A DNA stretch of 64,000 nt from Cyclobacteriaceae bacterium (GTDB lineage: Bacteria; Bacteroidota; Bacteroidia; Cytophagales; Cyclobacteriaceae): the NCBI GenBank assembly GCA_020832375.1, contig JAFIEW010000001.1, positions 55,267-119,266 on the forward strand, in the 5' to 3' direction. The stretch's first letter is position 1, and each line of letters begins with the position of its first letter. Position numbers and translations under genes: made by a program. Below the pieces are notes generated by a model. That model was not told where the DNA came from. It saw only the letters and a list, made by a program, of their open reading frames with translations, and ran no database searches. Below, piece by piece: positions 3,401 to 57,592 of the stretch.

Positions 3401-4256
3401 AAAAGTAGAATCCCAAGGAAAGAAACTTAAAAATTGTCATATATCTATTAATTATGGAATAAAAACAGGTCTTAACGAGGCTTTTGTAGTGAAAGGGGAA
3501 TTAAAGAGTAGAGTTTTTAGTGAGGAAAAAAACAGCATCCCTTTTTTAAAGCCTATTTTAAGAGGAAGAGATATACAAAAATGGTTACCGGATTACAATA
3601 ATCTATGGTTAATTAACATCCCAAAAGGTTACACAATAAAAACAAAGTTAAATATTATGGAGGTTAATGATTCTCCTCCGCGGTATGGTAATGTGGAATA
3701 TGATGAAGCCTATGAATGGTTTAAGAATAATCATCCAATTATAGCAAAGCACTTAGAGGGCTTCAAAGATAAAGCTGCAAAAAGAAAAGACAAGGGTGAT
3801 TTTTGGTGGGAGCAAAGAGCTTGTTCTTATTTAAATGATTTTGATACACCTAAAATAATTTATCCAAATATGACAAAATTCTTACCTTTTGTAATCGATC
3901 TAGATTCTCATTATTTCCACAATGATAAGTCATTCCATTTAATAACAAATAGAATTTTTTGGCATGGCTCATTCTTTAATTCAAAGCTTTTTAAATTTTG
4001 TTTTCAAAATAGCTTCCCAGAACTTCTTGGTGGAACAAAAGAATTGAGAAAAATATTTTTCGAACAAATTCCAGTTAAAGAAATATCAGAAGAGCAGGAA
4101 ATACCTTTCAAAAGATTAGTCAAACAAATCTTATCAATTAAAAAACAAAACCCTCAAGCGGACACCACAGACTTAGAAAACCAAATAGACCAGCTAGTAT
4201 ATGCGCTTTATGGCTTGACGGAGGAAGAGATTCGGATTGTGGAGGGGAGTGTTTAA
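429..4256 (+). CDS. Type IIG (Eco57I/PglX-like) single-chain restriction endonuclease + N6-adenine DNA methyltransferase
   Basis: ORF 399..4256 (TTG at 399, first ATG at 429). Motifs: PD-(D/E)xK-like signature D85...E103-A-K105 (NDLVIHNG...VIIEAKKP, nt 651-713); SAM motif I DPAVGSGHFL (from nt 2073); family-typical NIKCGNSL; catalytic motif IV VVIGNPPY (NPPY nt 2931-2942). It also has a long C-terminal putative target-recognition region and a conserved tail LVYALYGLTEEEI. Confidence 0.85.
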   Translation: MKMKRIKLKAALNSAFLKVKPNRVAIEQFKTNLIQLLDRSNEHESEEFHKNLVSDFLKKTYYDPQHFINTKGRNDLVIHNGKEAKSSVGVIIEAKKPTNKSEMVSTNKLNTKAFQELMLYYLRERISLKNLEVKHLVITNIYEWYIFDVTTFDRLFAQNKTLVKQFEDFEAGRLADTKTDFFYKQIAEPFLSAITQEVDFVYFNLLDYEKVLRNENKSDDNQLIALFKLLSPEHLLKLPFANDSNSLDKRFYNELLHIIGLAETKEGSKKLIGRKKAGERNSGSILEDAIIQLDSMDKLSRLDRPEQYGNSREERLFQVALELSITWINRILFLKLLEAQLITYHGGSKEYAFLNLDTLKNYDDLNSLFFQVLARKYEDRNEDVKQLFEKVPYLNSSLFEPTDLEHTTLSISNLKDDKEIPLLASTVLKDEQGKKRTGSLPTLAYLFAFLNAYDFSSEGSEAIQEENKTLINASVLGLIFEKINGYKDGSFFTPGFITMYMCRETIRKAVVQKFNESKGWECKEFDELYDKIEDRNEANAIVNSLKICDPAVGSGHFLVSALNEMIAIKHELRILQDRQGKRLKEYAVEVVNDELIVTDEEGELFEYHPNSKESQRVQEAFFHEKQSIIENCLFGVDINPNSVKICRLRLWIELLKNAYYKNATELETLPNIDINIKCGNSLVSRFGIDADLKKALKSNKHHWTIDSYRQAVSTYRNAQSKEEKREMQRWIENIKSDFRSEIAKNDPKIKRKALLGGELYNLTMQQGLFEESAKQKKQREAKIAKIEASLEKLDHEIEDIKSNKIFENAFEWRFEFPEVLNDEGDFVGFDVVIGNPPYIRQEEFSDLKPYLKSRFKVYNSISDLLTYFVELSFDILSSYGTFQYIISNKFTRTNYGKVLRKFLLENTNLTHFLDFSGIPVFDEATVDAAIIGFQKAKTVKSNLLYANIIKENLSIQNFNEFLEANAINIKQTVLSENIWQINNQQSEEIKLKVESQGKKLKNCHISINYGIKTGLNEAFVVKGELKSRVFSEEKNSIPFLKPILRGRDIQKWLPDYNNLWLINIPKGYTIKTKLNIMEVNDSPPRYGNVEYDEAYEWFKNNHPIIAKHLEGFKDKAAKRKDKGDFWWEQRACSYLNDFDTPKIIYPNMTKFLPFVIDLDSHYFHNDKSFHLITNRIFWHGSFFNSKLFKFCFQNSFPELLGGTKELRKIFFEQIPVKEISEEQEIPFKRLVKQILSIKKQNPQADTTDLENQIDQLVYALYGLTEEEIRIVEGSV

Positions 4257-20294: not shown

Positions 20295-20782
20295 AGATTT
20301 TATTCAATTAGTCGTTATACCGAAATTCCATGACGAAGATCAGTAATAAATTAAAATTTATACCGCATCTTAGCATCTTTGTTTTCAAAAGATACGGAAA
20401 AATTACCAAGATCTTTATATTTATACAATCAAGTGAAGCCACCAGTGCTAAAATTGACACAATTAAGTAATACTACTTAAGGCAAGGAATGGTATATTTT
20501 ACTAATCGCCAAAAACAGCAAAGGAATTTTAATAGCCCAATAGCCTTCATTCAACAATTAGCTCAAGTAAGCTCTTCATCCCACGAAAACAAAAAGATTT
20601 TTTAAGCAAAGCGCTTCTTTCACTATCGATTATTTTTAAATTTGTCTTGTATTGATTATCATACACTCATTGGTTCTCAGTAGCGGATTCAATTAATCCC
20701 AATGTACCGCTTGGCTTAGTATTTAAAAGGTTTTGCTTGGGATGAGAACGCAGTCGATACTTCCTGACTAATTAAAAAACAC

Positions 20783-22639
20783 ATGAAAGAAAAAATACAA
20801 CGACTCCTTGATTTAAGTAGTTTAAAAATCCGCTTAGGCTGGGTGTTTTCCTTTTATGTAATTGCTATCGTGGTGATAGCTGGAGGTGTTCTTTATCTAC
20901 TTCATCCTGCGAAAAATATAAGCGAAGCAATCAGTATTGAACAACTAGCCATCGAAGAGTATACCAAGTTGACCAACCACCTTCATGAAAGCCAGCGGCA
21001 TCTTTACCATTTTGCTATGAGCGAAAGGAGCTTTTTTCAACGTCAGAGAGAAAAGGTATGGGTAGAAAAAATTCATCCTTATTCGGAGTCAATACGCAGA
21101 AAAGTGGCTAATCCTAACTTAACAGGTATAAAAAGGAAGCAATACGAATTTCTGATTAAAGAACTATACCTTTACGACAGCCTCCAACTGGTATGGGAAG
21201 ACGAAATTTATAGAAAAATTAAGATCAGCACTGAAGTTAATGAAGAAGGGGCATCACTTGAAGTCTACTCTGAAGAGGACGACCTAGAAAATGAAGATTT
21301 AGAAAATGAAGAGAATACCGATTTTTTCGAGCTCAACGAGAGTGATGAGAACATTGAGTTTTTTGATCTGAACGAAGGTGACACTCAATCTGATGAAGAG
21401 GGAGAAGAGGATGACGATTTTTTCTTTGAAGCGGTATTTCCACCATTATATCCGCCATCTGGTGCTATGGACAGAATACGGCAGGCTGAATTAGATCAGT
21501 TTAATTTGATTCAAAAAGAACTGCTTTATGCCAACTATGAGACCTTAGAAAAACTCCGATATCTTGCTAAAACCCAAGAAGACGCACAAAGAAAGGCTTA
21601 TGGCTTTGCTTGGATCAGCTTTTTAATCTTTTTTATACCAGGGGTTTATTTTGTATCTCGCGTTCCGATGCAGCTGATCATACCTTTCCGACAGCTGAAG
21701 GCATTTTACGATGAGTTGGTATTGGGCAAGTTTCCAGAAAAGCTCCCCAACCGCAACGATGAGTTTGGGGAGCTCAATCTACAGTCCAATAAGCTGGTAG
21801 ACCAATTGCGCAATATATCAGAATTTGCATTGGCTGTAGGAAGAGGTGAAAAGAATAAAAGCCTACAATTGAGTAGTGAGAATGATATATTGGGTAGGTC
21901 ACTTCTAGATATGGAGCAGGAGTTGGCTAAAACACGAGAGCAAGAAAGCCGAAGAAACTGGGCGACTAAAGGTCAGGCTGATCTCGCAGATGTACTGCGC
22001 AATGATGATGACATAGAAAGCTTGAGTGATGATCTGATCCGTCATTTAGTTGAGTACCTGAACGCCAATATTGGGGCGCTTTACATTTTAGAGCGTGATG
22101 AAAACGGAAATGAACTGTTGAAACTACAAGCTGCCTATGGCTGGGGAAGAAAAAAGCTCTATAGCACGACCATTGACATTGGTGAAGGAATTGTGGGACA
22201 GGTATATTTAGAAAAAAAGTCGCAAGTACTCAAAAACCTTCCTGAAGGATACCTTAAAATCAATACTGGCTTAGGTGAGCTTATTCCTACTGAAGTTATT
22301 GTAGTGCCAGCTCTCACTGAAGGCCAAGTCCCTGCAGTTCTGGAGCTTGGTAGTAGACAGTCATTTGAAAAGCACCAAATCGACTTCCTTGAGTCAGCAG
22401 GTGAGAATATTGCCGCAGCTATTATAGACGCTAAAAAAGCCTCAGAGCAACAGCGACTACTAGAGACCTCAAAACAAATGCAAGAGCAACTAAGAGCTCA
22501 AGAAGAGGAAATGCGCCAAAACCTTGAGGAAATGGAAGCTACCCAAGAGGAAAACAACCGAAACATCCGATTACTAGAACAGCGAATCAAACAGCTGGAG
22601 CGAGAAAATAATGAGTTGAAAAATAGATCCTCTACCTAA
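20783..22639 (+). CDS. Membrane-bound HAMP + GAF domain protein with an acidic repeat insert and a C-terminal coiled coil
   Basis: 618 aa. Two TM segments. Acidic low-complexity block (EDDLENEDLENEENTDFFELNESDENIEFFDLNEGD..). HAMP-like segment (RNDEFGELNLQSNKLVDQL). GAF-like region (..NANIGALYILE...GEGIVGQVYLEKK). Q/E-rich coiled-coil tail. No recognisable output domain. Confidence 0.7.
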   Translation: MKEKIQRLLDLSSLKIRLGWVFSFYVIAIVVIAGGVLYLLHPAKNISEAISIEQLAIEEYTKLTNHLHESQRHLYHFAMSERSFFQRQREKVWVEKIHPYSESIRRKVANPNLTGIKRKQYEFLIKELYLYDSLQLVWEDEIYRKIKISTEVNEEGASLEVYSEEDDLENEDLENEENTDFFELNESDENIEFFDLNEGDTQSDEEGEEDDDFFFEAVFPPLYPPSGAMDRIRQAELDQFNLIQKELLYANYETLEKLRYLAKTQEDAQRKAYGFAWISFLIFFIPGVYFVSRVPMQLIIPFRQLKAFYDELVLGKFPEKLPNRNDEFGELNLQSNKLVDQLRNISEFALAVGRGEKNKSLQLSSENDILGRSLLDMEQELAKTREQESRRNWATKGQADLADVLRNDDDIESLSDDLIRHLVEYLNANIGALYILERDENGNELLKLQAAYGWGRKKLYSTTIDIGEGIVGQVYLEKKSQVLKNLPEGYLKINTGLGELIPTEVIVVPALTEGQVPAVLELGSRQSFEKHQIDFLESAGENIAAAIIDAKKASEQQRLLETSKQMQEQLRAQEEEMRQNLEEMEATQEENNRNIRLLEQRIKQLERENNELKNRSST

Positions 22640-22734
22640 AGCCTATCAATGAACACCTAAATCCAAATGCTCAATTGTTGACTTTCAATAAAGATAATAC
22701 ACACTCAATATATGAACCTTTCATACGCTTTTTA

Positions 22735-23259
22735 CTAAAAATCAGTATCTAAGCCAAAGCGCTCCTGTAGCTCTTGAAGCTTAGGGTACTTTTTCATTAG
22801 ATATTTTAGCTTCTCTTTCGGCGTATAGCGCATTTCTACCTGACTCTGTTCCTTTATTTCATAGTCGATCTGTAAATCCTCTAAAGCAAAATAACTCTTC
22901 AAAAATCCTAGTAATGGGTTTTTCAAAGCTTCGAAATAAGGTTCATGCGTTTTGCCATTTAAGCTAAACCGGATGAGGCGATCGGAGGCAAATTCAAAAG
23001 ACTGTCCCAATACCACCTTTGCACCAGCGGCCAGTTGAGTGCCTTGCTTTTCTTTAAATTGCTCGATGGCATCTTTAAGTGTAGTAGGTGAAATAGTAAG
23101 CCCCGAAGCGGCCGCTTGAGGAGTCGCGGTATTTTCATTTTCACTAGGTGCTTGAGCTTCCGCTTGCTCTTGTCGCTTGCGCTCTTCTATGTTAGCGCGA
23201 ATCTGTTCTTCGGTGGTGGGAATCTTTGGACTGCGCTGTATTGCCCTGCGAGACTGCAA
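22735..23259 (-). CDS. dnaX: C-terminal (tau-specific) part of DNA polymerase III gamma/tau, in the -1 frame relative to the upstream dnaX ORF
   Basis: The tracked ORF starts at a TTG, but this frame is open upstream through the A10 run at 23319-23328 (..KKKSKVEQRPDSSGDANANKSAGLQSRR..). The charged/PAQ-rich linker followed by ..YTPKEKLKYLMKKYPKLQELQERFGLDTDF resembles the C-terminal end of Bacteroidota DnaX. Confidence 0.65.
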   Translation of the reverse strand: MQSRRAIQRSPKIPTTEEQIRANIEERKRQEQAEAQAPSENENTATPQAAASGLTISPTTLKDAIEQFKEKQGTQLAAGAKVVLGQSFEFASDRLIRFSLNGKTHEPYFEALKNPLLGFLKSYFALEDLQIDYEIKEQSQVEMRYTPKEKLKYLMKKYPKLQELQERFGLDTDF

Positions 23260-23309
23260 GCCTGCACTTTTATTGGCATTAGCATCACCTGAAGAATCAG
23301 GACGCTGCT

Positions 23310-24449
23310 CTACTTTACTTTTTTTTTTGACTCTACATTGGCCAGCAAGAGAGCTGCATTGAGGTTGGCCAGCTTACTAAGACAAATTTCTACATGCACC
23401 CGCTGATTTTTTCGCCCCTTATACTCCACCTCACACTTACTAACAATGGTGAGTGCAGATAGTAAAAAGGAAAGATCTACCTCTTGTGCTTGTTGCTTAT
23501 ACTTGGCAGCTACCTCCTCCGATACTTCCAACAGACTAATCGTTTGAGCATCTTTGCATACCATCAAATCTCTAAGGTGATCCATCAGGCCTACCAAAAA
23601 ATTATGCGCGTCAAATCCTTTTTTCAATATCTCGTCAAAAAGCAATAAGAGGGAGGCGGTATCTTCGGCCATCATCATATCAACCGCTCTAAAATAGTAG
23701 TCGTAGTCGAGTACATGCAGATTGTCGATGGTGGTCTGATAGGAAATATGATTATCAGAAGAGAAGGTATGGATCAGATCAAAAAGTGAAAGAGCGTCTC
23801 TTAAGGCACCATCCGCCTTTTGAGCAATAAGCCTTAGCGCTTCTTCCTCATACTGAATGTTTTCTTCCTTCGCGATATGAGCCAAGTGGTTGGCAATGTC
23901 TTTTACTACAATCCTATTGAAGTCAAAAATCTGACAACGACTCAAAATAGTAGGAATAATTTTATGCTTTTCGGTAGTAGCTAAAATAAATATGGCATAG
24001 GATGGTGGCTCTTCTAAAGTCTTCAAAAAAGCATTGAAGGCTTGGTTGGAAAGCATGTGAACCTCATCAATAATATAGATTTTGTACTTACCTGCCTGCG
24101 GTGCATATCGAACTTGCTCTACCAAGTTACGGATATCATCTACCGAGTTGTTGGAAGCGGCATCAAGCTCGCTGATGTTCATTGAGTTGCCATCTTTGAA
24201 ACTTAGGCAGCTATTGCATTTGCCACAAGCCTCCATATCCGCACCAATATTTTCACAATTGATCGTCTTAGCAAGAATACGAGCGCAAGTTGTTTTTCCA
24301 ACTCCCCTAGGACCACAAAACAAGAAAGCTTGCGCAAGGTGATTGTTTTTGATAGCATTTTTCAGGGTTGTAGTAATATGCCCTTGGCCAACTACACTAT
24401 TAAACTTATCTGGTCTGTATTTCCTTGCTGATACTACAAAATTATCCAT
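23310..24449 (-). CDS. dnaX: DNA polymerase III subunit gamma/tau, N-terminal clamp-loader domains I-III; zero-frame product ends 2 codons after an A10 run
   Basis: MDNFVVSARKYRPDKF..., Walker A GPRGVGKTT, zinc module CGKCNSC, DEVHML, SRC motif (LSRCQ). ATG at 24449 (the tracked ORF extends to 24473). Stop TAG at 23310-23312. Confidence 0.9.
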   Translation of the reverse strand: MDNFVVSARKYRPDKFNSVVGQGHITTTLKNAIKNNHLAQAFLFCGPRGVGKTTCARILAKTINCENIGADMEACGKCNSCLSFKDGNSMNISELDAASNNSVDDIRNLVEQVRYAPQAGKYKIYIIDEVHMLSNQAFNAFLKTLEEPPSYAIFILATTEKHKIIPTILSRCQIFDFNRIVVKDIANHLAHIAKEENIQYEEEALRLIAQKADGALRDALSLFDLIHTFSSDNHISYQTTIDNLHVLDYDYYFRAVDMMMAEDTASLLLLFDEILKKGFDAHNFLVGLMDHLRDLMVCKDAQTISLLEVSEEVAAKYKQQAQEVDLSFLLSALTIVSKCEVEYKGRKNQRVHVEICLSKLANLNAALLLANVESKKKVK

Positions 24450-24548
24450 ACTTGCCTTGCTTTTCCTTTGCACTCCAAATGTAAAGATAATCCACTAAAG
24501 AGCGGAATATTTTCTATGATCTTTTTTGATTTATGATAAGTCCATCCG

Positions 24549-25352
24549 TCATAACCTAAATTGCAAACCATTGGTGAAAGAAAACAAATAGGGTGTGATC
24601 GGTACGATAGGCCGATCCTCATAGTCAGCGGTGAAACGGTTAATTAACGACAAGCGCTCTGTAATCGAGATGATGACGTTGATTTCAGCGCTAACCCGAT
24701 TTCTCAATCGGCTGATGCTTCGATCATAGCCAGTCTGATAGAATACAATACCATTTAAATTAAGTAACTGATTGGGTTCCCAGCGGAAGTTGGCATAGGT
24801 TGAGCTTTTGATGAACTCTACCCGTGTCACGCTATCTTCTATAGTAGGATGAAGCCAGCGCTCATTTTCATAAAAGCCACCCGAGCCAATCGTTAAGTCA
24901 AACTTAGTAGACCTGATCGCCCGAAATCGAAAACTACCCCCAGCAATGATTCTAGGGTCCAAACCCCTAAAGTTATCATATTGAAATTGAGTGAAAACCT
25001 CATAGTGAAAGCGCTCTCTATGGTTAAAGCTCGTGCGTAAATGACTATAGCCATTACTCAAAAAAACATTATTATTAATCCGCAAGTAGTCATACTTATT
25101 GATAAAAATATAGGCATTCTTTTGATCAAAATACCCTAGATCTCCTGATGCATTAAAACCAAATAAGTTCACTGGGTTGTCTACACCAGCACTGCGATTA
25201 AACTGTCTTAATGAGACAGATACTGTAGAAACAAAGAAATTGGTAGTGTCTCGATTGGCGAGTTTTGACTTTTCGACATTTAATATTTGTGCGTGGGATG
25301 AGGAAATAAAAAGAAAGCTTAAAAAAATAGTTGCTGTAATTACTCTAGTCAT
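24549..25352 (-). CDS. Predicted outer-membrane beta-barrel protein (possibly DUF481-like)
   Basis: 267 aa. Signal peptide ending SSSHAQ. Alternating hydrophobic/aromatic pattern throughout. Family call uncertain. Confidence 0.55.
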   Translation of the reverse strand: MTRVITATIFLSFLFISSSHAQILNVEKSKLANRDTTNFFVSTVSVSLRQFNRSAGVDNPVNLFGFNASGDLGYFDQKNAYIFINKYDYLRINNNVFLSNGYSHLRTSFNHRERFHYEVFTQFQYDNFRGLDPRIIAGGSFRFRAIRSTKFDLTIGSGGFYENERWLHPTIEDSVTRVEFIKSSTYANFRWEPNQLLNLNGIVFYQTGYDRSISRLRNRVSAEINVIISITERLSLINRFTADYEDRPIVPITPYLFSFTNGLQFRL

Positions 25353-25353
25353 A

Positions 25354-25845
25354 TTAGAGGGTTTTTTCCATTACAAAATCATTCATATAGTATCCTCCAC
25401 CAATTGGATTGTCTTCTGTTCGAATCACCTCAAAGCCGAGTTTTTGATAAATATCTATCGCTTTATTTTCACGGTTGACGTTTAAAAAGACGGTTTCTTG
25501 ATTATTCTGTTTTGCCTTTATAAGCACATGCTCGATCAAGGCTTTACCTATTCCCTTGTTCTGATAGTTGGGGTCTAAGTAGATCTTATGCAGTTTAGTT
25601 TGCTGAGGCAGAAGGTCTACTTCGTAAGCGGCAAAGCCTACTGCGTTCTCATTCCAACACCCCCAAATAAAAGAAACGCCTCGAGCGTATTGACTGCGTA
25701 ATTCATCCAAATTGTACATCCAATCGAGCATATAGCTGATTTGATCTTTGCTCAAGATAGATGCAAAAGCGGGTGGCCATATACGGTAAGCCATGGCTCG
25801 CAGTGCAGCAAGTTCGGAAGCTTGTAGGGGTCGGATGGATATCAT
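25354..25845 (-). CDS. GNAT-family N-acetyltransferase
   Basis: 163 aa. Acetyl-CoA binding motif A (YQNKGIGKALIEHV) and typical GNAT size. Confidence 0.85.
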   Translation of the reverse strand: MISIRPLQASELAALRAMAYRIWPPAFASILSKDQISYMLDWMYNLDELRSQYARGVSFIWGCWNENAVGFAAYEVDLLPQQTKLHKIYLDPNYQNKGIGKALIEHVLIKAKQNNQETVFLNVNRENKAIDIYQKLGFEVIRTEDNPIGGGYYMNDFVMEKTL

Positions 25846-25928
25846 GCCTCAAAATTACAAGCTTTCGGGTTGATCTGAAAGTTGGGATGAGTAAATGCAA
25901 AAAATAATGATTTATACCTAGCCTATGC

Positions 25929-26645
25929 TTAGTGGCAAAGAGGAATATCGCTCAAGTCAGGGTCTGCACCAAGGCTGAGATCAGGCATCATAAGAAACGG
26001 ACTCAGATATGGAATATTCAAATTAAGCCCTCGAATGATAAAGAGCACTCCAATAAATGCAGCTGCCAAAGGCATCAACCGAAAGAGCTTCTGCCTGATA
26101 TTTGGACTTACTAGCCGTCCGCTGATCATGGCAGCAAAGAGTGCAGGGGTGGTGCCAAGACCAAAAATAAACATGAATAAAGCCGCATAGTAAGGATTAG
26201 GCAAGGCTAGCGCAGCAATCACGGCGACATAGACCATGCCGCAGGGAAGTAATCCGTTGAGCATACCTGTCATCCAGTAGGAGAAGCTACCCCCTCTTTT
26301 GATGTATCGCCCCAAGGCTCGCTTAAGGTGATTAACCTGAGACTGTAAGCCGAGAATGCTTGCCATTTTTTCGCTTTTTTTATAGATGACGGCCATCAGT
26401 AAGATAGAAATACCTGCGGCAATGGATAGTGCTTGCTGCACACCAGCGAGCTGTAAGCCGTAGCCTACCCACCCGAAAAGAAAGCCAATGCCCGCATAGG
26501 TAAAACTCCTGCCCAGATTGTAAAGCAAGCGATTAGCATAGTAGGCTTTTTCCTTTCCGGCTGATAGCGCAAGCGCTATAGGTCCACACATGCCAATGCA
26601 GTGGAATGAACCTAAAAAACCAAGTAAAAAGCCTGATATCAACAT
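25929..26645 (-). CDS. TauE/SafE-like (DsbD_2-like) integral membrane protein associated with cbb3 oxidase loci
   Basis: 238 aa, polytopic. N-terminal GSFHCIGMCGP motif. Sits at the distal end of the cco cluster, as in many Bacteroidota. Confidence 0.7.
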   Translation of the reverse strand: MLISGFLLGFLGSFHCIGMCGPIALALSAGKEKAYYANRLLYNLGRSFTYAGIGFLFGWVGYGLQLAGVQQALSIAAGISILLMAVIYKKSEKMASILGLQSQVNHLKRALGRYIKRGGSFSYWMTGMLNGLLPCGMVYVAVIAALALPNPYYAALFMFIFGLGTTPALFAAMISGRLVSPNIRQKLFRLMPLAAAFIGVLFIIRGLNLNIPYLSPFLMMPDLSLGADPDLSDIPLCH

Positions 26646-26750
26646 CGAATTAAATAAAATCTATTTTGAAAATGAGCCTATAATTTCTCTTTCAGCTTAG
26701 GCAAGTCAATCAGTTGTGTATTTGAAACACGGACTCCGTATAGCGTCGAT

Positions 26751-27173
26751 TTATTGAAGGGTCATTTTAAGCTCTTGGTAAAAACCTTTATCACCATCAA
26801 ACCAAGTGAGCTTGGCTCTCCAATATCCATTTTTTAAATCCTCAAGATTCACTGCGAGTGGCTCTCCGTCCGTATCGGTGAATTCAATCATTTGATCCAA
26901 GCCGGCATCATCGGGTCTAAAAAGCTGAAGTTTGCCTTTAGATGCTACTGGAAGATCAAGAATAAGCTCCCTACTGCCAGCATTGTAGCGAAGTGCCTCC
27001 ATGCCTTTAGCGTTTTGCATTTTGTCAATTTGCTGCTGGTAGACCAATTCTTGTGCGTAATAATCTTGTGTTACCAAGTCGATATTCTCTTGCTTGACGC
27101 AAACTACCACCAAGCTGATCATGAAAACAGCAAAGACAGTAAAAGTGATAAATATTCCAGTTCCCCAGTTCAT
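26751..27173 (-). CDS. FixH/CcoH-family cbb3 oxidase assembly protein
   Basis: 140 aa. MNWGTGIFITF.. N-terminal TM, then ..QDYYAQEL.YQQQIDKMQNA, typical of Bacteroidota FixH. Directly downstream of ccoG. Confidence 0.8.
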   Translation of the reverse strand: MNWGTGIFITFTVFAVFMISLVVVCVKQENIDLVTQDYYAQELVYQQQIDKMQNAKGMEALRYNAGSRELILDLPVASKGKLQLFRPDDAGLDQMIEFTDTDGEPLAVNLEDLKNGYWRAKLTWFDGDKGFYQELKMTLQ

Positions 27174-27225
27174 AATGCTATGATTTTAAAATTTTGTTAC
27201 ACCAGCTATTAGTACATCTCGTGGA

Positions 27226-28626
27226 TTATATCGGCCCGGTAAAATTAGTTTTTACTCGTTCCAATACTTCACCATCTTGCATAATGAGAATCCTTACTGG
27301 CTCAGTACGAGCTTGTATTGCTTCTCTATCTTTCAACAAGAAGAATCGCTTTTTAATTCTTTCCTGACCCTCTAGCTCCCAAACATCCTCTCCCAGCATA
27401 TCTAGCGTAAAATTCTCGTCCTCTATTTTAAGAACAATCCCCTTATCGTCGAAGGTTTTATTGATGATGCTCACCTCATAAAGGTTACTTACTTGATTAT
27501 CATCTCTAAGCTGGTAGGTCATACCCGGAAATCGGGTAATAGTAGCCGCTACATCTGTCCTAGTAGCTATTAAACCTATAAAAAGGCTCGTCAGTAAAAG
27601 TAATACAAGTGAATAAGCCTTCACTCTAGTTGTCCATACTTTTTGCTTGCCTTCCTTGATGCCTTCCTCACTTGCATAACGAATCAACTCTTTCGGCCGA
27701 CCGATTTTTTCCATCACCTCATCGCAGGCATCGATACAAGCGGTGCAATTGATACATTCCATTTGAGTGCCATTTTTAATATCGATACCCGTTGGACATA
27801 CTTGCACACACAGACCACAAGCAATACAATCACCAAGTTCTTCGTTCTTTTCTGGCTCTTTTTTATTGATTTTTCCTCTTGGTTCGCCTCTGACATCATC
27901 GTAAGCGACAACGATACTTTTTTCATCAAGTAGTACCCCCTGAAGCCTCCCATAAGGACAAACCACCGTACAAGCTTGCTCCCTAAACCACCAAAACACA
28001 AAGAAAAAAATACCTGTAAATGCCGATAGTGCGATAAAGCCTGTCATGTGCTCCGCAGGTCCGGCTTTTACTACTTCTACCGTCTGCTCCCAACTGATCA
28101 AATATGCCATCACAAGGTGAGCAATGAAGGTTGATAAGGATAGAAAAATGAAAAACTTTAAACTACGTTTTTTAATTTTTTCAGCATTCCAAGGCATCTC
28201 AGCCAACTTTCTTTGCTGACCCGCATCCCCATCTATCATATACTCGATCTTACGAAATACCATTTCCATAAAGAGCGTTTGCGGACAAGCCCACCCGCAG
28301 AAGAGCCTACCAAAAGCTACCGTAAACACAATTACAAATACAAAGAAGATCAGCAATAGAAAGATCAATAGATAAGTATCTTGAGGCCAAAATACTTTAC
28401 CAAAGATGATGAACTTCCTCTCAAAAAAATTCAACATGAGCAGAGGCTGACCACCAATCTTGATGAAAGGTCCAAGGAAAAGCATCGCCAAAAACACCCA
28501 CGACACATAGGTACGTAGGCTATAAAATTTACCAAGTTGCTTTTTGGGGAAGATCCAATTTCTACCTCCATCCTCTCGGATCGTTGCCATAGAATCTCTG
28601 AATGCTTCCTGATTTTCCTCTTTCAT
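27226..28626 (-). CDS. ccoG: Cytochrome c oxidase accessory protein CcoG (polyferredoxin-like)
   Basis: 466 aa. TM segments with CGWACPQ and CPYGRLQ. Two 4Fe-4S ferredoxin motifs, CIACGLCVQVCP and CINCTACIDACD. Confidence 0.9.
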   Translation of the reverse strand: MKEENQEAFRDSMATIREDGGRNWIFPKKQLGKFYSLRTYVSWVFLAMLFLGPFIKIGGQPLLMLNFFERKFIIFGKVFWPQDTYLLIFLLLIFFVFVIVFTVAFGRLFCGWACPQTLFMEMVFRKIEYMIDGDAGQQRKLAEMPWNAEKIKKRSLKFFIFLSLSTFIAHLVMAYLISWEQTVEVVKAGPAEHMTGFIALSAFTGIFFFVFWWFREQACTVVCPYGRLQGVLLDEKSIVVAYDDVRGEPRGKINKKEPEKNEELGDCIACGLCVQVCPTGIDIKNGTQMECINCTACIDACDEVMEKIGRPKELIRYASEEGIKEGKQKVWTTRVKAYSLVLLLLTSLFIGLIATRTDVAATITRFPGMTYQLRDDNQVSNLYEVSIINKTFDDKGIVLKIEDENFTLDMLGEDVWELEGQERIKKRFFLLKDREAIQARTEPVRILIMQDGEVLERVKTNFTGPI

Positions 28627-56512: not shown

Positions 56513-57589
56513 TTACTTTCTACCGCTAGCTTTATCTTTTATTTCTGCTTTTTTCTTCATTTTGGGCAGATAAAATGAAAATGTTGATCCTTTTCCGATT
56601 GCGCTAGTTACCGCAATTTTAGATCCATGTTGCCTCACTACCTGAGAAGCTATTGCTAATCCTAGCCCTGTTCCTCCCCTATCTTTAGAACGACTTTTTT
56701 CAACTCTATAAAATCTCTCAAAAATACGATTTAAGTCCTCTGGTGGTATACCCAAGCCTTGATCTGAGATGGCAAACCAAATATCATTCTTTTCTTTCTT
56801 TAATTCAACATTTACCTCCGAGCCATCAGCACTATACTTTATAGCATTTGATACTAAATTGACAATCACTTGTCTTATTCTATAAGGATCGGCATAAACG
56901 AACATCGGTGAAGGGGGTATTTCAGGCATCTTTAGCTTAATGTTTCGCTTCTCGGCTTTATATTCGAATTGCTCAAACACCTCGCTTACTAAATGGTATA
57001 AATCCACTTCCTTGAACTCCATGGTAATGGAGCCACTCTCCATTTTAGAAAGCACCAATATATCCTGAACTAAAGCATCAAGCCCATCTAAGCTTTTGGC
57101 CGCCTTTTTAAGAAACCGATGTCTAATTTCTTCATCGTCTACGGCCCCGTCTAATAGAGTATGCAAATAGCCTTGCGCTGCAAAAATAGGGGTCTTCAGC
57201 TCATGACTCACATCTGCTAAAAATTCTTTTCTGAAAGTTTCTATCTCCTTCAACTCATTGATTTGTTGCTGCTTTTTATGTGCGTAGGAGAAAATCTCTT
57301 TATTGATTTGTCGAAGCGGGTTGAGTGGTTTTCTACCCTCTTGCTTCTTAAACATATTAAGATCACGCTTCTTAATACGCTCTAAAGCTTTATAGATACT
57401 ATTAATTTCGCGAAACACCAAGATGTCAAGTGTAATCTGGATAAGCAGATAAGAGGCGGCAAAACAAAGAATAAAATTAACCGCTAAAGTAAGTGGCTTT
57501 ACATCATCAAAAAGTGAAAGAAAAAGTGTTGTTACAAGGGCAATACAAATACCCAAAAAAAAAGATACTAATCTAGAGCTTAATTTCAT
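56513..57589 (-). CDS. Sensor histidine kinase
   Basis: 358 aa. Two TM segments, H-box FLADVSHELKTP, N box (NLVSNAIKYS), G boxes (DQGLGI, GTGLGLAI). Confidence 0.9.
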   Translation of the reverse strand: MKLSSRLVSFFLGICIALVTTLFLSLFDDVKPLTLAVNFILCFAASYLLIQITLDILVFREINSIYKALERIKKRDLNMFKKQEGRKPLNPLRQINKEIFSYAHKKQQQINELKEIETFRKEFLADVSHELKTPIFAAQGYLHTLLDGAVDDEEIRHRFLKKAAKSLDGLDALVQDILVLSKMESGSITMEFKEVDLYHLVSEVFEQFEYKAEKRNIKLKMPEIPPSPMFVYADPYRIRQVIVNLVSNAIKYSADGSEVNVELKKEKNDIWFAISDQGLGIPPEDLNRIFERFYRVEKSRSKDRGGTGLGLAIASQVVRQHGSKIAVTSAIGKGSTFSFYLPKMKKKAEIKDKASGRK

Positions 57590-57592
57590 ACT

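Follow-up and report, generated by a model that had tools for sequence, protein, structure and literature searches.

An A10 tract conserved in Bacteroidota dnaX separates the gamma-like and tau reading frames in a Cyclobacteriaceae genome and probably acts through transcriptional slippage

Does a bacterium whose dnaX gene is interrupted at a run of ten adenines still make the clamp loader's tau subunit, and, if so, by what route? The question is raised by a stretch of 64,000 nucleotides from a Cyclobacteriaceae metagenome-assembled genome (MAG) (GenBank assembly GCA_020832375.1, contig JAFIEW010000001.1, positions 55,267 to 119,266 of the forward strand; hereafter the window, position 1 being its first nucleotide). 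Here dnaX is split into two open reading frames (ORFs) on the minus strand, the upstream one encoding a short, gamma-like product and the downstream one, which lies in the -1 frame, resembling the C-terminus of tau. An earlier note, written from the letters of this DNA, had taken standard decoding to give the short form and recoding the long one, a reading which is supported by the conservation of the site and by the homology of the -1 ORF. We consider it almost certain that the A10 tract is a functional and conserved recoding site, and not an error or the mark of a pseudogene, and transcriptional slippage of the type described for Thermus is probably the main route to tau. Tau is the organiser of the replisome and is essential in Escherichia coli; in the present organism, like release factor 2, it would be made only through non-standard decoding.

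The A10 tract in the window and across Bacteroidota

On the minus strand the junction reads ...GTA GAG TCA AAA AAA AAA GTA AAG TAG, and re-reading of the DNA confirmed both this sequence and the position of the ten adenines (Table 1) as the earlier note had given them. The tract is the longest homopolymer of the window, in which no other run attains ten nucleotides and the runner-up is a single A9, and it is translated as KKK in the zero frame and in the -1 frame alike. The predicted product of the A10 gene ends in ..ESKKKVK and, with its 379 residues, bears out the earlier estimate of a protein of about 380 residues covering clamp-loader domains I-III and closed two codons after the run: Pfam recognises in it PF13177 (DNA_pol3_delta2; residues 22-179, 2.8e-47), PF22608 (ATPase lid; residues 185-224, 4.5e-15) and PF12169 (gamma domain III; residues 247-363, 9e-08), and its nearest homologues bear the name DNA polymerase III subunit gamma/tau.

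The -1 frame passes through the run without a stop (..ESKKKSKVEQRPDSSGDANANKSAGLQSRR..) and extends over 194 codons before it ends, in agreement with the tau-like continuation of about 190 residues that had been noted there, and the addition in silico of a single A joins the two frames into a fused protein of 571 residues. This protein can be aligned from end to end (1-571), in one frame and with 48-53% identity, to DnaX proteins encoded without interruption in Dyadobacter, Pontibacter, Pedobacter and others, and the C-terminal 194 residues on their own match 18 contiguous tau C-termini by blastp (best E 4e-12). Runs of nine or twelve A are predicted to give products ending in ..ESKKK or ..ESKKKK, of 377 and 378 residues respectively. 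For comparison between loci the distance to the stops was counted from inside the run, which for the window amounts to 3 codons in the zero frame and 1 in the +1 frame, corresponding to 2 and 0 codons past the run.

Table 1. Features of the split dnaX gene, in coordinates of the window
Feature	Position	Strand	Remarks
dnaX zero-frame ORF, gamma-like short product	23310..24449	-	ATG at 24449, TAG at 23310-23312; 379 residues; clamp-loader domains I-III
A10 run (T10 on the plus strand), slippage or shift site	23319..23328	-	phase TC-A AAA AAA AAA
+1-frame stop TAA	23315..23317	-	AAG TAA, directly past the run; would end the products of A9 and A12 transcripts
Zero-frame stop TAG	23310..23312	-	two codons (GTA AAG) past the run; ends the gamma-like product of unslipped A10 mRNA
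tau-specific segment, -1 frame	22735..23319	-	194 codons (SKVEQRPD...GLDTDF) and stop TAG at 22735-22737
Conserved domain at the C-terminus of tau in Bacteroidota (Pfam PF28557, DUF8439)	22738..23142	-	from the alignment of locus-derived C-termini

The wider distribution of the tract was analysed in a survey of 80 Bacteroidota dnaX loci, one per species, taken from a genome collection, which together with the window make 81 genes. A run of at least nine A (A9-A13) is present at the boundary of domains III and IV in 66 of the 81, mostly as A10 (57 genes) and less often as A9 (5), A11 (2), A12 (1) or A13 (1), and in the 19 loci which we list individually the boundary falls at residues 355-374. 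Past the run exactly one frame of the three is free of stops over about 200 codons, and this is the zero frame in 47 loci, the -1 frame in 16 (the window and 15 others) and the +1 frame in 3. Whatever the register, the C-terminal ORFs find contiguous tau C-termini in blastp, with E between 1e-6 and 3e-29. The registers are spread among Cytophagales, Flavobacteriales, Bacteroidales, Sphingobacteriales and Chitinophagales, which implies many register switches. A further regularity concerns the frames which do not lead to tau, as both of them stop within 7 codons in 95% of the loci, against 15.5% at random in-gene positions, the median distance to the stop being 2 codons against 10.

These data indicate that it is the nucleotide tract which is conserved, and not a Lys-Lys-Lys peptide. 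Indeed, the codon phase of the run varies across loci (0, 1 and 2), AAA accounts for only 63% of the lysine codons in the surveyed genes, and within codons 1-330 of the 80 related dnaX genes the longest run of A never exceeds 8 and is usually 5-6. Compared with this maximum, the recurrence of an exact A10 at the boundary in 57 of 81 genes is beyond chance.

The three loci of the +1 register, all from MAGs, carry the same A10 and belong to Paludibacter (L049, 4095-4104), Bacteroidaceae (L066, 4093-4102) and Flavobacteriales (L077, 4061-4070). They need one A fewer or two more for tau, and their downstream ORFs, which match contiguous tau C-termini with E from 6e-16 to 3e-29, are genuine tau C-termini.

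From a split gene to two products

The simplest explanation for the split, which the earlier note had itself put forward, would be an error of one nucleotide in the sequencing or assembly of the homopolymer, the true gene having A11 and a single continuous ORF. Some sequencing platforms are indeed prone to errors in A10 tracts, the window comes from a MAG, and in one relative, Xanthovirga, a draft contig carries an A11 in frame. However, the exact 379-residue product is present on 6 contigs, and window positions 20310-27449 are identical to contig JAIUMQ010000003.1 of assembly GCA_022565445.1. An exact look-up of the products predicted for A8, A9 and A11 in a collection of about 15 billion proteins, which served also as a proxy for transcript heterogeneity in a collection made mostly of DNA assemblies, returned none for this organism or for Echinicola vietnamensis. 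Among the 120 closest homologues of the short product, which have 71-76% identity and include Belliella, Mongoliibacter, Algoriphagus, Cecembia, Nitritalea and several complete Echinicola genomes, 115 are proteins of about 381 residues which end in "...KKK" followed by one to three residues. In E. vietnamensis the 381-residue product (RefSeq WP_041738234.1) is found on 17 contigs, A10 was read in 3 of 3 contigs, each from a different sequencing run, and the gene has its zero-frame stop one codon (GAC) past the run and a -1 continuation of 193 codons. The layout of the nearest relative (P0002, with 75% DnaX identity) is the same as in the window, so that the comparison of run length and frame organisation which the earlier note had suggested finds the same A10 and -1 arrangement in the DNA of independent species. 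Both non-tau frames, moreover, carry stops directly past the run, and the same layout has been published for finished genomes (Antonov et al. 2013, Nucleic Acids Research 41:6514, PMC3711429). Recurrence on independent contigs, the absence of products of variant length and the layout shared by relatives rule out a sequencing error, to which we leave practically no probability. A related but distinct possibility is that only the short DnaX is made, the downstream ORF being either a DUF8439 protein of its own, started at a TTG or by re-initiation, or a dying remnant. This is how gene callers and RefSeq see such loci, annotating a short 'DNA polymerase III subunit gamma/tau' and a 'hypothetical protein'; in the window the callers start the downstream ORF at TTG 23259, 51 nucleotides past the zero-frame stop, which gives a separate ORF of 174 residues. 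Nevertheless, the tau frame is free of stops from within the run in 19 of 19 shifted loci and has no ATG in the 162 codons past the run of the window, both of which speak against a gene translated on its own; the stretch that links the run to the conserved domain is never broken, which a gene with a start of its own would not require; and the same domain is covalently part of DnaX in 47 relatives. Decay, in turn, is at odds with a C-terminal domain which is well conserved and has 199 homologues. An independent gene or pseudogene is therefore judged quite improbable.

The two products can be envisaged to arise as follows. RNA polymerase would slip on the T10 template tract and release mRNAs with differing numbers of A. 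Faithful A10 transcripts would be read in the zero frame and end two codons past the run, yielding the 379-residue gamma-like subunit with domains I-III, transcripts with one extra A (A11, and likewise A8 or A14) would join the upstream frame to the -1 frame and yield the 571-residue tau, and A9 and A12 transcripts would meet the TAA directly past the run and yield a second gamma-like form. Slippage of this Thermus type, with A11 transcripts leading to tau, is in our judgement the probable main route in the dnaX of the window. The tract is kept at exactly ten A in 57 of the 81 genes, and -1 ribosomal frameshifting needs only seven. The existence of all three registers with the same A10, together with the closure of both off-frames in 95% of the loci, is what would be expected if all three frames were populated. 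Close relatives of the window have few long forms, and these differ by one A, as in P0116, where an A9 is in frame (TCA AAA AAA AAG GCT), and in the Xanthovirga contig mentioned above; we count these cases in favour of slippage at the level of transcription. Insertions are reported to predominate in the slippage of Thermus dnaX (PMC6260861), and we reason that one extra A, if it is the commonest slip product, would account for the much greater frequency of the -1 register (16 loci) compared with the +1 register (3 loci).

A number of points weigh against transcriptional slippage and have to be set beside this evidence. Our search of the literature found no transcript or protein evidence for any two-ORF dnaX, and none for this organism; a review from 2016 states that tau 'seems' to be derived from frameshifting, citing unpublished work (PMC5009743); slippage by a Bacteroidota RNA polymerase on A10/T10 is presumed; and it is from its position that we ascribe to the C-terminal domain the part of tau which binds the polymerase or the helicase. 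In the same way a slip in transcription, and not in translation, is what we infer, as are the ratio of the two products and the partner of the C-terminal domain. The run also holds an in-phase A_AAA_AAA heptamer at which -1 ribosomal frameshifting could contribute, and a hairpin at 23281-23309 (-15.3 kcal/mol) begins 9 nucleotides downstream of it, a spacing plausible for a stimulator.

These last features define the most serious rival, in which ribosomes on the faithful A10 mRNA would make tau by a programmed -1 shift on A_AAA_AAA (TC-A AAA AAA), perhaps aided by the hairpin, and gamma when unshifted. The heptamer stands in the correct X_XXY_YYZ phase, E. coli dnaX shifts by -1 at the equivalent place (PMC3711429), and the 2016 review calls the reversed cases possibly ribosomal, with a Chlorobium candidate which has E. 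coli-like stimulators (PMC5009743). Yet the hairpin of the window falls short of significance when set against dinucleotide shuffles (z -1.1), the loci of the -1 register share no conserved structure downstream (mean z -0.16), folding of 50-60 nucleotides on each side of the run in 66 loci gave no conserved RNA structure, and the Rfam dnaX frameshift element (RF00382) has no match at E<=1 in 22400-24700. Besides, a run kept at ten A and not seven, three loci which with the same A10 need a +1 shift, and stops kept in both off-frames by zero-register relatives, which a -1 shift alone leaves unexplained, do not fit such a mechanism, and A_AAA_AAA is in E. coli a weaker shift site than A_AAA_AAG (PMC5009743). 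We regard ribosomal frameshifting as unlikely to be the main source of tau, though it may contribute. Far less credible is a change of tract length in the DNA itself, the A10 being a contingency locus which would switch tau on or off in subpopulations at replication: homopolymers mutate fast and the register does differ between related species (A9, A10, A11), but the off state would probably be lethal, tau being the essential dnaX product in E. coli, the A10 product is the same in every independent assembly of one species, and the conserved stops in both off-frames point to a constitutive design for two products. The chance that phase variation accounts for the locus is, we believe, very slight indeed.

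Relation to described systems and wider reading

The earlier note had deemed the arrangement unusual if real, and in this respect it did not hold, since the layout had been described in 2013 and is also common in Bacteroidota. Antonov et al. (PMC3711429) present it as one in which recoding is required for tau (GeneTack cluster COF_239165634), comprising 17 genes from 12 genera with two adjacent ORFs and a -1 shift, nine of them with A10. Their Supplementary Figure S3 includes Cytophaga hutchinsonii (TAAAAAAAAAAGTAAATAA), Flavobacterium johnsoniae, F. psychrophilum, Capnocytophaga, several Chlorobi, Chlorobium species among them, and Coraliomargarita, and aligns the A10 motifs with the Thermus site; transcriptional realignment is proposed there as the mechanism. 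The point is repeated by Sharma et al. 2014 (PMC4066793) and in the review of Atkins et al. 2016 (PMC5009743), and in the later literature we found no paper with experimental proof for a two-ORF dnaX. The window shares with this class the adjacent ORFs, the first of them encoding DnaX domains I-III, the -1 shift at the DNA level, the A10 at the junction with the zero-frame stop directly after it, and a second ORF in the -1 frame which overlaps the tract and encodes a homologue of the tau C-terminus, position and direction of the shift being conserved in orthologues. Its junction, TCAAAAAAAAAAGTAAAGTAG, is close to that given for C. hutchinsonii, which like E. vietnamensis and F. johnsoniae is a culturable species with this layout. 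Only the organism differs, this being an uncultured Cytophagales-like MAG with 75% identity between its DnaX and the closest one. The dnaX of the window is thus a further case of a two-ORF class already in the literature. Beyond the prior accounts, as far as their accessible text goes, the present analysis adds the A10 found in three registers across the phylum, the +1 register and the closure of both off-frames, all of which are extensions and not a new kind of arrangement.

In Thermus thermophilus, slippage on an A9 is reported to produce mRNAs in all three frames and about 50% of short product (Larsen et al. 2000, via PMC1088944), one frame serving for tau and the remaining two, in which stops are close by, for gamma (PMC1088944). 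The likeness to the window is evident in the homopolymeric A tract of at least nine nucleotides (A9 there, A10 here) which parts gamma from the tau-specific segment, in the nearby stops of both non-tau frames and in the prospect of two products from one gene. A distinct scenario results, however, when the frames are compared: in T. thermophilus tau comes from the templated frame and gamma from slipped transcripts, whereas in the window the templated frame gives gamma and the transcript with one more A would give tau. Moreover, slippage has been demonstrated experimentally in T. thermophilus, while the locus of the window is known from its DNA. Tau in the templated frame, absent from the window, is found in 47 relatives. 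These zero-register loci (for example L001, 4137-4146, and L012, 4159-4168), annotated as ordinary single ORFs with the A-run at the boundary of domains III and IV, look from their sequences like unrecognised slippage sites of the Thermus type, which would yield the gamma form.

The dnaX of E. coli (RF00382) has in common with the window the gene itself, the boundary of domains III and IV, a gamma and a tau which share their N-terminus, and a shift site rich in lysine codons. Contrary to the window, its shifted product is the short one, and its heptamer A_AAA_AAG is accompanied by strong stimulators, an upstream Shine-Dalgarno-like element and a downstream stem-loop. In the window A_AAA_AAA is followed by GTA within a run of ten A, and there is neither a match to the Rfam element nor a significant or conserved stem-loop, so that an element of the E. 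coli type is absent. Cases in which the longer, functional protein requires a transcript that has gained a non-templated base at a homopolymer are known from Shigella mxiE (T9), Citrobacter rodentium tssM and the poly(A) frameshifts of Buchnera and Blochmannia (PMC1088944, PMC4256274, PMC5009743); these concern other genes, and those of the endosymbionts are regarded as the rescue of mutations and not a conserved design for two products.

The value of the finding lies mainly in correct annotation. The 379-residue 'gamma/tau' and the 174-residue 'hypothetical protein' of the window are to be annotated as one recoded gene, and not as a frameshift error or a pseudogene, and the gap in annotation is wide, as RefSeq lists only the short product for E. 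vietnamensis (WP_041738234.1). With respect to most relatives the roles of the two decoding modes are swapped, tau being there encoded in the zero frame, as in T. thermophilus, and gamma left to slippage. A broader reading, which we offer tentatively and hold to be possible without calling it probable, is that A10 is an ancient slippage site of Bacteroidota kept in three registers, at which a change of one base in the DNA resets what the faithful and the slipped transcripts encode. It would then act as an evolvable dial of the tau to gamma ratio, with tau obtained wholly through the infidelity of RNA polymerase in lineages like that of the window, and with UAG readthrough as a third route in a few Bacteroidales. 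The prior accounts, in those parts to which we had access, cover the two-ORF cases of the -1 type, and neither the pattern across the phylum nor the +1 register or the UAG variant.

The C-terminal domain and other dnaX layouts

The tau-specific segment of the window contains a conserved domain (PF28557, Table 1) and ends in the motif YTxxEKxxYLxxKxPxLxELxxxFGLDxDF. This domain is found on stand-alone ORFs downstream of split genes and also at the end of contiguous DnaX. A word-indexed protein search with the C-terminal 194 residues returned only the query itself, and homologues were collected with a profile built from the locus-derived C-termini, which gave 199 of them, the best 120 being all stand-alone ORFs. 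Of those which bear names (P0122-P0240), most go under 'hypothetical protein', some under 'DNA polymerase-3 subunit gamma/tau' and two under 'DnaA'. An AlphaFold2 model of the last 135 residues, computed from 91 aligned sequences, reached moderate confidence (pLDDT 68.7) and predicts an alpha-alpha-beta-beta-alpha-beta fold followed by two helices. Its best Foldseek matches in the PDB are to domain I of DnaA (4tps, 2e0g) and are weak (E 0.08-0.6; 4tps_B with E 0.08 and probability 0.97), while a profile search of PDB sequences gave as sole match, also weak, the N-terminal region of PolC (9qpc_A residues 104-196, E 0.008). Domain V of tau did not appear among the 50 best-ranked Foldseek matches. 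The weak likeness of the model to DnaA domain I and of the sequence profile to PolC suggests that a fold for replisome interaction may be shared.

A few surveyed loci depart from the A-run altogether. Three Bacteroidales MAGs, L052 (CAMZFW010000113.1, ~2785-2800), L057 (CADAWR010000007.1, ~4099-4115) and L059 (ONQD01000012.1, ~4096-4112), have in place of it an in-frame TAG at the boundary of domains III and IV, in the conserved context CCA/ACA TAG ATT GCW AGG (protein ..P*IARSPQ..), past which the same frame resumes for about 200 codons to the tau C-terminus. Neighbouring genes are free of in-frame TAG and some of them end in TAG, which indicates that this codon is not reassigned. Judging from these sequences, gamma would possibly be made by termination and tau by UAG readthrough. 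A metagenome scan for the context of this variant, CATAGATTGCAAGG, gave 120 chance matches, none in dnaX, and our search of the literature found no account of a dnaX with an in-frame TAG.

In L054 (CAMVOL010000002.1, ~4140-4160) a stop closes the zero frame at residue 383 (..SREC*), and 249 codons of the +1 frame carry on with the tau C-terminus past a junction, GGGAGTGCTAAAAATCC, that has no A-run; the split could be an error, another kind of shift site or a true split. Four further Bacteroidaceae or Bacteroides MAGs (L050, L056, L064 and L076) have a contiguous dnaX without an A-run at about codon 370. A G-rich motif, GGGGCGTAGC, occurs there in L050, L056 and L076, in which the -1 frame immediately reads TAG, and L064 reads GGGCGCAAGCCC and has no such -1 stop.

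Within the window, ORFs of at least 100 residues, counted from stop to stop, cover 84% of the sequence, and a scan of 22400-24700 for promoters and terminators gave no signal beyond the expectation from shuffled sequence. The only other long homopolymer, at 57555-57563 (A9 on the plus strand, T9 on the minus strand), falls within the first 40 nucleotides of a minus-strand stop-to-stop ORF (56513-57592), probably at or before the start of its coding part.

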